A model generated the notes under the pieces. It was not told where the DNA came from. It saw only the letters and a program-made list of their open reading frames with translations, and ran no database searches. This document shows positions 1,208 through 21,903 of a stretch of 64,000 nt of DNA, piece by piece. How positions within the stretch are numbered: the first letter of the stretch is position 1; each line of letters starts with the position of its first letter. The position numbers were made by a program, and so were the translations under genes. This DNA comes from Naegleria gruberi (taxonomy: Eukaryota), in the NCBI GenBank assembly GCA_000004985.1, contig GG738867.1, one strand, 5' to 3'.

Positions 1208-4200
1208 TTGCAAAACAAAATGGAAGACATGTACCTGTGGGATGAAGATTTGATGGAGGCTCTTCATCAATCCAATATCGATCATTTTGCCACTAATAAA
1301 TCATCAAGCAACTCCTCCAAGCACAACAAGAACAGCACAGATTGTATTGAATTCTCCAAATTAGAGTTTGGTAATTTCGATGATCGAGAAATGACCACCT
1401 TCCGAAGGGTAACCACTCGACACTCCTTTCATGATGTTCATTCGACAAGTTTCAAGGTATATTGGAAGGAAGGTGGTGATTTTTCAGTCTTCTTTCTGAT
1501 TAAACCTCATCATCAGTTTTGGATTGAAATCAATAGAAACATTATACGGAAGGTAATCATTGTTGATAATGAAAGTATTGCCATTGTACTGGATCAGGCT
1601 CCAAGTGTTCACAGAAAACGTGATGGTGATGATAACAAGACAAGAATGGCTGCTCCAACTGATAAAACTACTCAGGCACATAGTTTCTGGTTGCACAATT
1701 TCAATGTGACAAAATCTCTGCTCCTCTCTGGTATTCGATATGAGCATGTGGAAATTCTCAAAAGTAAGACTTCAAAGACACACTATTTATATGGAACAAA
1801 ATCATGTACAGCTCTAACAATGAAGGATGTGAATGGTATGGATTGGAAGGGCCAATTGAATATTGAGCTTGGTATTCCATTTCATACCATGTATTTATTA
1901 TTGTGCTTGAATTGTAAAGTTCCTGGCTTACTTGCTAGTTATGAAAGATTATCAGAGATTAAGCAACTCTTTAATGAATTGAAAGATAGTAACAACAACT
2001 CATATGACTTGGTGAATGTTGCTCTGGAAAAGTGTTTACAACACGAAGGGTTCTTTCCTTCAGAGTTTACTACTCTCTTCAAAAAACATTCTCACAAACG
2101 CCAACACAAAAGCTTTGTAAAGGTTGATGACAATATGTTTGAAATCAGAAAGGTAATGATCACACCAACAGGAATCAAGTATTTCCCAAAAATCCTCGAA
2201 TCTGGAAATCGAGTCTTGAGAAAATACAAGCAATACGAAGATAGATTTCTCAGAGTGACATTTTGTGATGAGGGTCTTAATAGAGTTAGCGCTGAAAAGG
2301 TCACAAACATGCACCCTCGATTGGAGGAATTCCTTAATAATGGTTTTACTATTGGAAATAGACATTATGAGATGTTGGCCTATTCGAATAGCCAACTCAG
2401 AAGTCATAGCTGTTGGTTTTTGAATACGGAAGGAATTCGTGAACTGTCAGTGAGTTCTATCATTGAAGGTCTTGGTGACTTTTCTGATATTAAAGTAATG
2501 GCCAAATATGCTGCAAGAATTGGTCAATGCTTTTCCAATACTTTCAATGGTATCAAATCAGAATTTATAGAAGTAAATGATATTGTCTATCGAGAAATTG
2601 AAAGAAATGGGGACATTAAGGAAAACGTTCTCAATGACGGATGTGGCCGAATGTCTGTAAGTTTTGCAGAACAGGTTAGCAAGCAAATGAAAATTAGAAT
2701 TCATGGCAAAGCCTACATTCCATCAGCTTTACAATTCAGATTGGGTGGCTATAAAGGGGTAGTAGTACAAGATAAGGATGTTGCTGATATATTTGGAAAG
2801 GATCTGGTTCTCACTAAGAGTCAAAACAAGTTCAAGGACGAAAAGAGTGATGAATTTGAGATGGTAGCCTTCTCGAAACGTCCAAAGTTTTCCAGTCTCA
2901 ATAGACAAATTATTATTCTACTTTCCTCCAATGGCTTGCCTGACAGTGCCTTGATGAAATTTGTAGATAGAGAGATAGAGACTTGGAGGTCAAGAACAAC
3001 AAAAAAACTGAGTATTAGAAAGTTACTGAGAAAGGTGTGGGAAAATGTGGTTGGTTCGAATATCAAAAAGGTCATTTCATCAGAGTATTTAGATCTCAAA
3101 GCTCAGGTCCTTGCAAGTCAGGTCAAAGGAATGTCACAACAACATGTTGAATACTTTTACAATGTTGATCCATTACTCTGTACTCTATGCGATAAGATTT
3201 TGATTAACCAATTCTCCAGCTTGAAAACAAATCTTCCAGTTGATAAGTGTTCACTATTGATGGGTGTTGTTGATTTTTATGGAGTGCTAGAAGATGACGA
3301 GGTTTTTGTACAACTTTCTTCATTTGAGAGCTATGAAAGAGATTTATATGATCCTGGCTCGTATGCTGAAGGTGGAATAGTGAGTGGAAATGTATTTGTT
3401 ACAAGGAATCCTTGTCTTCACCCAGGAGATGTTAGAAAGTTTAAAGCTGTCAGTGATGACAGAATTAATGTTCTCAAACATTTGAAAGATGTTATTGTAT
3501 TCAGTCAAAAATCAAAACAATCCCAGGCTAGCAAGATGAGTGGAGGCGACTTGGATGGGGACCTTTTCATGGTGTGTTGGGATCCAGAGCTTTTAAATTT
3601 CACAGAACATAAACCAATGAAACACACTCAACTGAAACCTTTGGAAAAGAATGATGGTTTTGATTATAAGGCAATCAGAGATTTTCTTAAGGAGTATGTT
3701 GTGAATGACAATTTGGGAGTAGTTGCTTTTATGCATATGGAACACTATGATCAATCTTCAAAGGGAGCACTCGATCAAAACTGTTTGGATCTTGCTGATT
3801 ATCACTCTCACCAAGTTGATTATGCCAAGACTGGTGTTAGAAAGGCCTTACCAATGGAGCTGGTATCAGAGTATAGACCTCACTATATGCCAAAAAGTTT
3901 CATGAAGAAGACTTATCATTCAACCAAAATTATAGGAAAGAGTAAGTTATTGAGAATTTGATTTTTCTAACCACACAACAGTTCATGATAAGGTTGAGGA
4001 ATTTATGAAATCAAACAAAAAATTGAAAGAGAAGGTTAAAGAATCCGATCCCTTCCATCCACATTTTAAAACTTTGGATCTATTATTTGTAAAATACAAA
4101 CCTCTACAAATGCTTTTCATAGAGCATGACCAATTAAAGGAAGTGAAGAATGCCAATGAGGACTCTTTAATAACCAAAGATATTGCGGATATTTACAATT

Positions 4201-18626: not shown

Positions 18627-19376
18627 ATGGCTGTTGTATCTAGTAAAAACTACCTCACCCTATATAATTCATTGGCAACATTGGAGTGGATTTATTTATT
18701 ACTTTTTAGAACTCTACAACCACTCATTCAACGACATTCTAGTAGATTAAAAGTAAACAAGCAGGCTGCTGATAGGATTGCTCTGAGGAAGCCTTCATTA
18801 TGGCAATTGAATGGAGGCTTTTTAAAGTACATTCAAACACAAGCCTTGTTGGAATCGGTTCATAGTTTCTTCGGAATTACTTCCTCACCAGTCAGGACAA
18901 CATTTGGCCAAACTTGTGGACGATTGTTTATTACACATTTGATAGGAGATGATTTACCAACGAATGATTTATTATCGGATTGTTTAATGACCACTTTACA
19001 ATTATCTTGGTCTGCTGCTGATATTGTTAGGTATTTGTTTTATTTGGGTCAATTGTGGAAATTAGATCAAACACATCCAAAAGTTGCTAGTATTTTAAAG
19101 TTTTTGAGATATAATGCCTTTTTAGTATTATATCCTGTGGGAATGTTATCGGAAGTTTCAATGGTTTTGAGAGTAGTTTTCACAAAATGGATTGATTTGG
19201 AGGCAATTCACCCAGAAAATCCAGAAAAGAAGAGAAGAAAACCAGTTGTGAAAAAGCCACCCTATCCTCTTGTGAAAAAGTTCATGATTGTATTCTTCTT
19301 CCTGTTTATTGTCTGTGTTGGATATCCAACAGTTTATTTACACATGTTATCACAGAGACGAAAGAGTATGAAATGA
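18627..19376 (+). CDS. Very-long-chain 3-hydroxyacyl-CoA dehydratase (PTPLA/HACD/PHS1 family)
   Basis: Multi-TM protein with PTPLA-like motifs: QTQALLESVHSFFGITSSPVRTTFGQTCGRLFITHLI and IVRYLFYLGQLWK. Confidence 0.65.
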   Translation: MAVVSSKNYLTLYNSLATLEWIYLLLFRTLQPLIQRHSSRLKVNKQAADRIALRKPSLWQLNGGFLKYIQTQALLESVHSFFGITSSPVRTTFGQTCGRLFITHLIGDDLPTNDLLSDCLMTTLQLSWSAADIVRYLFYLGQLWKLDQTHPKVASILKFLRYNAFLVLYPVGMLSEVSMVLRVVFTKWIDLEAIHPENPEKKRRKPVVKKPPYPLVKKFMIVFFFLFIVCVGYPTVYLHMLSQRRKSMK

Positions 19377-19562
19377 ATTCATTAATGGTGGATATTATTT
19401 GAGAAGATTTGAAATCTTGGTGATTATCATATTTTGAGAGTGTTGTGAAATCAAAATGGTTCAAAGAAATTGAATTTCTTTTCAACAACGATCAGGACTA
19501 AATATTTCTCATAGTTCCATTTAAAAGAAATAGATATTTCATAATCCAATTTATCAAACTAT

Positions 19563-20489
19563 TTATTGCCCAATAAGGGATGGATAAATTGATCTTGGAT
19601 AACCACCCTCATTAAAAACATTAATAACATATCTATTTCCGTTAATTTTAACATCAGAAAGATTCTTCTTTCCACTTGGTTGTAAACTCTCCAAATAGGC
19701 CAGTGTGGAAAGTGCCAATAGGCACTCTGGAGAAATACCAACAAAAAAGCTTCCACAAGATTTGAATAATTGATTATCAGATTGACCATCTCCATCCACG
19801 TCTTCATCCTGTTTGAAACGAACACAGACATAATCAGGAGTTGACTCATTATCCAATCTTCCAGCAAATGAAATCACATCTTGACCTGTATGATTATCAG
19901 TCGAATCATCCAACAAGTATTTGAACCAATAGTGATAACCACTCACTTTATCACCATTCTTCTCACCTACAACAAGATGCTCAAATCCAGACAGGTCCTT
20001 ATAGTTGTGTAAGTTATATTGTTTGAACCAAATTTCTCTCAATTTCACTTTCAACTCTGTAGGTGTGGAAAGTTTCATATATTTCTGGCCCAGAATTCTC
20101 ATACACTTGGTTTGAACAATACTTTCAAGAAATTGCTCAACTTCCTTTCTCTCCTCCTCAGTATTCACCTCGCGACTATGTTGATCAAGTGAATAATTAT
20201 CAAATAATCTGGAAATTAATTTGTAATTCTTTGCCTGTTTGCTGTTAGATTGTAAAAATTCGGAATTCTTCACCTGAACATAGACATGCTTGGTGGCATC
20301 GTATTGGTACAATTTGAAGAGTGTAAAATTTGGATTGGATCTCTTACGATCCATTCCACACACAACACATATGTATTCTCCACCAATCGGACCTTGTGGT
20401 TTGATCTTGACTGGAGTGAGACGATTCTCATCCGCTTGCCAAATCTCATCCATTAACGTTGCAGAGAATTGATAGGAGTGTGAAGACAT
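19563..20489 (-). CDS. EndoU/XendoU-family poly(U)-specific endoribonuclease
   Basis: Hallmark GFEHLVVGEKNGDKVSGYHYW and C-terminal SFFVGISPECLLALSTLAYL. Confidence 0.75.
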   Translation of the reverse strand: MSSHSYQFSATLMDEIWQADENRLTPVKIKPQGPIGGEYICVVCGMDRKRSNPNFTLFKLYQYDATKHVYVQVKNSEFLQSNSKQAKNYKLISRLFDNYSLDQHSREVNTEEERKEVEQFLESIVQTKCMRILGQKYMKLSTPTELKVKLREIWFKQYNLHNYKDLSGFEHLVVGEKNGDKVSGYHYWFKYLLDDSTDNHTGQDVISFAGRLDNESTPDYVCVRFKQDEDVDGDGQSDNQLFKSCGSFFVGISPECLLALSTLAYLESLQPSGKKNLSDVKINGNRYVINVFNEGGYPRSIYPSLIGQ

Positions 20490-20602: not shown

Positions 20603-21903
20603 TTAATTGAGGGAAATCTTACTCTTAATTGCTACTTGATAGAGAATCTTTCTGTTATCGATATTATCTTCGTTGGAGAAGAGGGCATACTTCATCAAGA
20701 CAGCATTTCTATAATTACAAACAATGAATGTTACAAATACTTGTTCTCCATGAACAAATGCACGGCAACAGGTTTGAATGGCCTTGACATATCTGTGACT
20801 AGTTTGTTCTCCTCTCACATCTTCATTAAATGACAAGAGAGCATACTTGGTTCCTGATCCATTTTGAATAGTTTTCAAAAAATCATGATTGAGTTCATCA
20901 AATGCTGTATTTACATGTTCTGCATCTGTCTTCAAATAGGTAATGGAGAGTGAATTCTTAGTGAGTGGATCAATAAATGACAAGAGCATATCTCTATTTC
21001 TTGCAACTTCAATACTATCTGAATGAAGAACAAAGGATGTAGGAATACTTGGTTCAAAGAATGGTATTTTCAAATCTAAATTACAGAATGAAACACTTGT
21101 ATCATGCGCAGATGATAACAGAGTTCTAGATCTTGCAGTTCCACTAATTCTATGAGTAGTATCCCACTTGTATTCAATGTGAAGTACTCCTGATTTAACT
21201 CCTTGCAATTTCAATGTTTGTTTATATGATACATTGGCTGTTATTTCATCTGGAACAATTTCAAATCTAACTCTTCCTAAAAAGTCCTACATTATTTTCA
21301 CAAATCATTCAAATTCCAAATCAATGACAACATGAACATATTCTCACTTACATCCTTTGTAAATCTATTTCAATATTATAATAAATATTCAACCAAAATC
21401 ATTGTTAGCAACCTACCTATCCCAATCAAACACTTCAAACAATAATTTAAAAGTAGCAACATCTTCCGAACAAATAGAAAATCTAAAAGTTGAATTCCAA
21501 ACAGGATCCAAAGTAGCCATACATGTTTTAGTCTTTCTCATAATTCCACAATTATCTGAAGCATCATCTTCAATCACCATACAATATCTATATTTTCATT
21601 ATCATCATCAATACAATCATCATCATCATCATATACATAAATATATATAATAATTCATTCCGCCATCATCATCATCATCATGATTAATTTTTCATCACAT
21701 ACAAAATTCCGAACATTAAACTCAAACTCTACTTTATATATATAAACTTACGGATCACTACAATATTCTCTGACTAGTAACACTATTATTTACATAAACC
21801 AAAAAACCTACGATTTTCCATTAATATCAGAACTCTCCAATTTTTCTGCCTTTTCCACGAGTAGTATAATTTGATCACCTGGTTGAAAAGATGATGTTGC
21901 CAT
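20603..21903 (-). CDS. C2-domain protein, 5 exons: 21812..21903, 21762..21767 (6-nt microexon), 21417..21587, 21352..21364 (13-nt exon), 20606..21286
   Basis: ATG at 21903 in a strong A-rich context. The spliced product reads ...LLVEKAEKLESSDINGKS|DP|YCMVIEDDASDNCGIMRKTKTCMATLDPVWNSTFRFSI...LFEVFDWDR|FTKD|DFLGRVRFEIVPDE..., a canonical C2 fold (GKSDPY, LnP.WN, F.V.D.D). All introns are GT..AG (44, 174, 52 and 65 nt). The exons total 963 nt, which is 321 codons. The microexon is inferred and not proven. Confidence 0.5.

Follow-up and report, generated by a model that had tools for sequence, protein, structure and literature searches.

We identified a putative 6-nucleotide (nt) coding exon in NAEGRDRAFT_67501 (UniProt D2VF50), a gene on the minus strand of a 64,000-nt stretch of Naegleria gruberi contig GG738867.1 (assembly GCA_000004985.1), which we refer to as the window. 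The gene very probably consists of five coding exons, including two genuine microexons (internal coding exons of at most 15 nt) of 6 and 13 nt, and encodes a C2 domain joined to a domain of Mog1/PsbP-like fold; the deposited protein, XP_002677458.1, misses the 6-nt exon. An initial annotation, made from the letters of the window, had held that this C2-domain gene requires both tiny exons, and the five-exon model is the best-supported reading on the combined evidence of domain profile, family model and N. fowleri homologue. Of the two, the public N. gruberi annotation already has the 13-nt exon and lacks only the 6-nt exon.

The gene runs on the minus strand from an ATG at 21903 to a TAA ending at 20603. 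The coding sequence of 966 nt corresponds to the 321 codons initially counted plus a stop, in exons of 92, 6, 171, 13 and 684 nt. They are separated by introns of 54, 164, 52 and 65 nt, and inspection of the extracted exon chain bears out that all four have GT..AG ends. The arrangement is as follows.

21812..21903, minus strand: coding exon 1, 92 nt, encoding M1 to S31, of whose codon it holds the first two bases; phase-2 end, AAA TC/gtaggt.
21758..21811, minus strand: intron 1, 54 nt, GTAGGT...TGTAG.
21752..21757, minus strand: exon 2, the 6-nt microexon TGATCC, phase 2/2, encoding the end of Ser31, Asp32 and two bases of Pro33.
21588..21751, minus strand: intron 2, 164 nt, GTAAGT...ATATAG, with (GAT)n microsatellites inside.
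21417..21587, minus strand: coding exon 3, 171 nt, from the third base of Pro33 to the first two bases of Arg90; it holds the C2 beta-sandwich core, including Asp87 and Asp89.
21365..21416, minus strand: intron 3, 52 nt, GTAGGT...AATAG, phase 2 within the Arg90 codon.
21352..21364, minus strand: exon 4, 13 nt (ATTTACAAAGGAT), encoding the end of Arg90, then Phe91, Thr92, Lys93 and Asp94, in Ca2+-binding loop 3.
21287..21351, minus strand: intron 4, 65 nt, GTAAGT...TGTAG, phase 0, directly 5' of DFLG.
20603..21286, minus strand: coding exon 5, 684 nt including TAA, encoding Asp95 to Asn321; it holds the last C2 strands, a linker and the C-terminal domain of about 165 amino acids.

Both tiny exons have canonical flanks and keep the frame (tag/TGATCC/gtaagt and tag/ATTTACAAAGGAT/gtaagt). 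The 30-mer that marks inclusion of the 6-nt exon is ATTAATGGAAAATCTGATCCATATTGTATG, and the one that marks its skipping is ATTAATGGAAAATCATATTGTATGGTG.

Splicing through TGATCC restores the C2 motif GKSDPYC as initially proposed: the translated protein contains INGKSDPYCMV and, further on, FDWDRFTKDDFLG. With the 6-nt exon the protein scores 67.6 bits against the Pfam C2 model (PF00168; gathering cutoff 22), 12 bits more than the 55.5 bits reached without it, which is still above the cutoff. We also enumerated all in-frame, stop-free internal exons lying between AG and GT in the 224-nt interval between exons 1 and 3. The nine candidates and the skip form were scored with a hidden Markov model (HMM) of the protein family described below, built from six members that have no microexon, with NAEGRDRAFT_67501 and the N. 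fowleri microexon gene excluded. TGATCC is the best of the ten options at 211.2 bits, and the skip form lies 15 bits lower at 196.2. The pattern AG-N-GAY-CC-GT occurs once on the two strands of the window (128 kb searched), compared with 0.14 occurrences expected. The single site falls in this intron and on the correct strand; for the 224-nt interval this corresponds to a chance of about 2.5e-4. An extended exon 1 or exon 3 was considered as a source of Asp-Pro and rejected because stops intervene: TCG TAG directly follows exon 1, and in-frame stops precede exon 3.

The position first given for TGATCC, 21762..21767, was off by 10 and has to be corrected to 21752..21757. The letters at 21762..21767 on the minus strand are AATATT, which by chance is also an in-frame 6-mer between AG and GT and would encode Ile-Leu. 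On the family HMM it reaches 198.7 bits, no better than a neutral insertion, compared with 211.2 bits for TGATCC.

The second-ranked candidate on the family HMM, at 202.3 bits, is an 18-nt exon (21769..21752, AGAATATTGTAGTGATCC) that begins at an upstream acceptor and would give GKSEYCSDPYCMV in place of the product of the 6-nt exon. It is in frame, has AG and GT flanks and likewise produces SDPY. However, its score is 9 bits lower than that of the 6-nt exon, and it disrupts the D-x5-D spacing that solved C2 domains share with every family member. It would also cut the first intron to 42 nt, and no equivalent candidate is present in N. fowleri. We consider its use extremely unlikely. The 6-nt exon, in turn, preserves the canonical D-x5-D spacing (six residues between the two loop-1 aspartates). 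When it is included, the protein aligns without gaps to the C2 structures of Syt1, Syt3, Syt7 and PKC through D-x-x-G-x-S-D-P-Y, and the alignment to the same structures is also ungapped across D-x-D-R-F-x-K-x-D.

The skip form, which reads GKSYCMV, is an exact full-length match over 319 amino acids to EFC44714.1/XP_002677458.1, and the 321-amino-acid form has no match in a collection of 15 billion proteins. An exhaustive search of GT..AG exon chains finds exactly one encoding of XP_002677458.1. That chain has a single 224-nt intron where the five-exon model has intron 1, TGATCC and intron 2, and it already contains the 13-nt exon. The initial claim that only the five-exon path keeps the frame thus stands for the 13-nt exon but not for the 6-nt exon: because TGATCC is symmetric, with phase 2/2, skipping it leaves an open frame of 319 amino acids. 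As skipping keeps the frame, omission of the exon went unflagged. The absence of the 6-nt exon from XP_002677458.1 is an annotation error, and the entry does not represent another gene. The 90%-identity cluster that contains XP_002677458.1 has as its representative an open reading frame (ORF) of 55 amino acids that corresponds to exon 3 alone and was called on genomic contigs; for this reason homology searches never returned XP_002677458.1 itself.

A reading in which TGATCC is a chance decoy and the deposited 319-amino-acid protein is the sole product of the gene has some points in its favor. That protein is the deposited annotation, its C2 domain is recognizable even without Asp-Pro, and a 224-nt intron is near the N. 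gruberi mean of 203 bp (PMC8296547). However, a matching pattern within this intron is improbable by chance at the level given above, and inclusion adds bits on two separate models, 12 on Pfam C2 and 15 on the family HMM. The skip form would be the lone family member without Asp-Pro, and a N. fowleri homologue needs a 6-nt exon of matching phase and spacing to encode its own deposited protein. On this evidence a decoy is very unlikely, and we return to the five-exon model and its relatives.

An exhaustive search with exon 5 against 1.84 billion representative proteins gave only seven distant matches. Their clusters resolve to a small family consisting of N. gruberi 67501 and 73455, N. fowleri FDP41_013477, FDP41_007293, FDP41_009875 and FDP41_012606, and three environmental sequences. 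The loci were examined by mapping proteins onto DNA or by reading the upstream DNA of each locus, and we label them L001 (FDP41_013477, on N. fowleri VFQX01000019.1), L010 (FDP41_012606, on VFQX01000015.1), L007 (an environmental homologue) and so on. SDP[YF] is found in eight of the eight family members with an available N-terminus, a rule to which the N. gruberi skip form would be the sole exception. Word-indexed protein searches with the 321-amino-acid model, a profile of the C-terminal domain and the N. fowleri homologue recovered few family members and no copy from N. lovaniensis or any other third species. A metagenome search for the locus found no relatives, and tblastx detects no synteny of the window with the N. 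fowleri loci.

The closest parallel to the N. gruberi microexon is in FDP41_012606 (XP_044566059.1/KAF0981346.1, 378 amino acids; the identical sequence is also listed under the N. fowleri accession CAG4709707.1). This protein reads ADINGFSDPYCKV, and the only way to encode it on VFQX01000015.1 is through exon lengths of 86, 6, 169 and 876 nt. Exon 2, the 6-nt AGATCC (L010 10140..10145), lies between atatag and gtaggt and supplies the same Ser, Asp and Pro codons in the same phases as TGATCC. The intron upstream of it is 53 nt long, compared with 54 nt in N. gruberi. The two loci differ at the opening base of this exon and of the exon that follows, in each case a synonymous third-codon position (Ser and Pro). 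The sequence tAG-nGATCC-GTAnGTTT forms a conserved island amid AT-rich intron sequence that is otherwise unalignable between the two species. The N. fowleri annotation that contains FDP41_012606 was made with BRAKER1 and RNA-seq (PMC6831594). Since gene prediction would hardly arrive at a 6-nt exon unless guided by intron hints, we infer from the annotation method that the exon has transcript support in N. fowleri. That two Naegleria genes with no more than about 30% identity share a 6-nt exon is a new observation, beside the correction of the N. gruberi model.

A FDP41_012606-like structure is also present at L003 (ENA assembly ERZ2098899, NODE_1403). This sequence is 99.86% identical over 6.4 kb to the locus of N. 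fowleri strain ATCC 30894 and therefore represents a second strain, not a second species. The same assembly holds, at L005 (NODE_1260), the C-terminal ORF of a different family gene from N. fowleri, so ERZ2098899 contains N. fowleri DNA. L006 (Logan SRR29240419) carries the same ORF as L005, and the cluster of that ORF at 90% identity or above includes FDP41_009875.

Several observations weigh against the five-exon model. The sole N. gruberi model that has been deposited leaves out the 6-nt exon, and the form it describes stays in frame. Metagenome and metatranscriptome contigs yielded no spliced junction, either including or lacking the 6 nt. That RNA-seq backs the microexon in N. fowleri is deduced from the annotation method, and the comparative support comes from one other species, as L003 and L010 are two strains of N. 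fowleri. NAEGRDRAFT_67501 and FDP41_012606 share only about 30% identity, and a neighbor-joining tree built to test their orthology supports the relevant nodes at only 34–50%. This tree groups the two N. gruberi genes together, which possibly reflects long-branch attraction. Finally, SDPY is encoded without interruption at the six remaining family loci, and the 6-nt exon is thus not family-wide.

The frame-neutral nature of the exon also allows a reading in which it is a regulated cassette. Both isoforms would be made, and the presence or absence of Asp32-Pro33 would switch the C2 domain between forms capable and incapable of binding Ca2+. The phase 2/2 exon leaves both forms in frame, the skip form stays above the Pfam threshold for C2 at 55.5 bits, Asp32 lines up with a Ca2+ ligand of synaptotagmin and PKC that is likewise Asp, and transcriptomes of N. 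gruberi show cases of exon skipping (PMC6142364). However, the skip form is known solely from a 2010 gene prediction, FDP41_012606 is recovered in the inclusion form alone under several N. fowleri accessions, and SDP[YF] is kept in all family members. In addition, intron retention rather than exon skipping prevails in all but one species of the same survey (PMC6142364). We regard a regulated cassette as unlikely. A stronger version, in which a 6-nt switch has been kept since before the split of N. gruberi and N. fowleri, with inclusion adding the loop-1 Ca2+-ligand Asp and skipping dropping it, is quite unlikely. If it were true, the choice of a microexon would set how sensitive a C2 protein is to calcium in a deep-branching protist whose introns are short, a mode of regulation known so far mainly from animal neuronal microexons. 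The five-exon model, with TGATCC included, remains our preferred description of the gene.

For the 13-nt exon, the initial proposal that 21352..21364 links the C2 body to the 3' exon is confirmed: the exon is needed for the frame and is present in the only encoding of XP_002677458.1. If it is skipped, the frame shifts and runs into a stop within three codons. Its residues agree with the family consensus DWDRFTKDDFLG, which is identical to the sequence of the environmental homologue L007, where it is uninterrupted. A phase-0 intron directly before DF[LI]G is kept in every family locus examined, namely at 21287..21351 in the window, 3325..3442 in L001, 3369..3452 in L002 and 10502..10619 in L010 (which has its counterpart in L003), and also in L004, L005, L007 and L008. 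The 52-nt intron 3 in the Arg90 codon is absent from all seven homologous loci inspected. The 13-nt exon therefore exists because an intron specific to N. gruberi lies 13 nt upstream of the phase-0 intron, and only the downstream of its two introns is conserved among family loci. The introns at the SDPY motif and at the Arg codon are each limited to particular lineages. At FDP41_013477 (L001, intron 3325..3442), two deposited proteins disagree: XP_044564976.1 (334 amino acids) reads RFSRN/DFLG and CAG4717413.1 (340 amino acids) reads RFSRNVCIQSLDFLG, which indicates different splice sites in one of the annotations.

The C2 region of the protein matches many solved C2 chains by sequence, and an AlphaFold model of the deposited 319-amino-acid form places eight strands within residues 11–134, as in the C2 beta-sandwich. 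Loop 1 is divided over exons 1 to 3 and loop 3 over exons 3 to 5. TGATCC contributes Asp32-Pro33 of the SDPY motif to loop 1, and the 13-nt exon contributes R-F-T-K-D94 to loop 3. D26, D32, D87, D89 and D95 align with the acidic positions of loops 1 and 3 in Syt1, Syt3, Syt7 and PKC, and all five positions are filled. We take these to be Ca2+ ligands from the corresponding residues of Syt1 C2A (D172, D178, D230, D232 and D238). As D32 is present only if the 6-nt exon is included, the full set of five acidic positions needs both tiny exons.

The C-terminal domain of about 165 amino acids is predicted to have a Mog1/PsbP-like fold, and its model shows the alpha-beta-alpha sandwich of that superfamily. 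Residues 152–321 have no Pfam match at E<=10 and thus no membership in the Mog1, PsbP or DUF1795 families; the whole protein matches C2 only. Judged from domain content only, the function is most likely Ca2+-dependent membrane recruitment of a Mog1/PsbP-like binding module.

Genes of N. gruberi have 1.7 exons on average (PMC8296547), and the short introns of NAEGRDRAFT_67501 (52–164 nt), each with its own consensus ends, would be recognized singly, by intron definition. Both tiny exons precede the consensus and strongest donor GTAAGT; exons 1 and 3 use GTAGGT. The 3' and 5' splice sites on either side of the 6-nt exon could presumably not be bound simultaneously at a distance of 6 nt, and introns 1 and 2 would for this reason probably be excised sequentially. 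Once either intron is gone, the microexon would belong to an exon of normal size.

Intron 2 carries two (GAT)n/(ATC)n trinucleotide microsatellites, at 21596..21632 (about 11 copies) and 21664..21681 (about 6 copies), and its length may vary between strains owing to these repeats. The possibility that introns 1–4 are mutual copies, as in introner-like gain, was rejected, as pairwise scores fall inside the shuffle range (|z| <= 2.2). The GC content of the window is 33%, in keeping with N. gruberi (PMC8296547). The next gene downstream occupies approximately 19000..20489 on the minus strand, and its ATG at 20489 lies about 110 nt past the stop codon of NAEGRDRAFT_67501. Its product is an XendoU-family endoribonuclease, with a Pfam PF09412 score of 122 bits across the first 200 amino acids.

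The result is an annotation fix and not new biology: microexons, their misannotation and C2 domains are all well known, and the homologous microexon is already annotated in N. fowleri. However modest, the fix affects how the gene is read. The entry XP_002677458.1/D2VF50 is short of the Asp-Pro of SDPY, one of which is a predicted Ca2+ ligand, and inference from it would wrongly point to a C2 domain unable to bind calcium. Frame-neutral microexons can drop silently out of the 2010 N. gruberi gene set. Such losses are recoverable through domain profiles and conservation of intron position in N. fowleri, and a systematic RNA-seq-based search might find more. The gene also shows that, in a heterolobosean, a 6-nt exon lying between very short introns can survive over a great evolutionary distance. 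No paper on microexons in Naegleria turned up in a literature search.

Among known systems the nearest is N. fowleri FDP41_012606, which shares the C2 domain, the same C-terminal domain, a 6-nt exon for S-D-P of SDPYC and the phase-0 intron before DF[LI]G. It differs in a Ser/His-rich linker insertion of about 60 amino acids and in an Arg codon without an intron, hence the lack of a 13-nt exon there; its microexon is part of the deposited annotation, whereas that of N. gruberi is not. The resemblance of the C-terminal domain to the Mog1 (RANGRF)/PsbP/DcrB/SciW-EagT6 superfamily is one of fold, at only 8–16% identity and with no sign of Ran binding or a common function. The C2 domain resembles those of synaptotagmin and classical PKC (2r83, 6ank and 1dsy), with about 35–40% local identity and with SDPY and D-x-D-R-F-[ST]-K-x-D aligned gaplessly. 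However, the N. gruberi protein combines one C2 domain with a Mog1/PsbP-like domain and has no transmembrane segment, kinase or second C2 domain.

Ultra-short plant microexons (<=15 nt) are pervasively misannotated (Yu et al. 2022, PMC8831610), and the exon described here resembles them as a tiny internal coding exon overlooked by annotation pipelines. Unlike that class, which was defined genome-wide from RNA-seq, it concerns a single gene of a member of the Heterolobosea, in another eukaryotic supergroup than plants, and is supported by comparative and profile evidence. Animal neuronal microexons are regulated cassettes of 3–27 nt that depend on SRRM4/eMIC, preserve the frame and often lie in surface loops of interaction domains. 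The 6-nt exon of NAEGRDRAFT_67501 is comparable in size and also preserves the frame. However, it is flanked by introns of 54 and 164 nt, in contrast to the long flanking introns of the animal microexons, for which SRRM4/eMIC serves as a dedicated enhancer protein.
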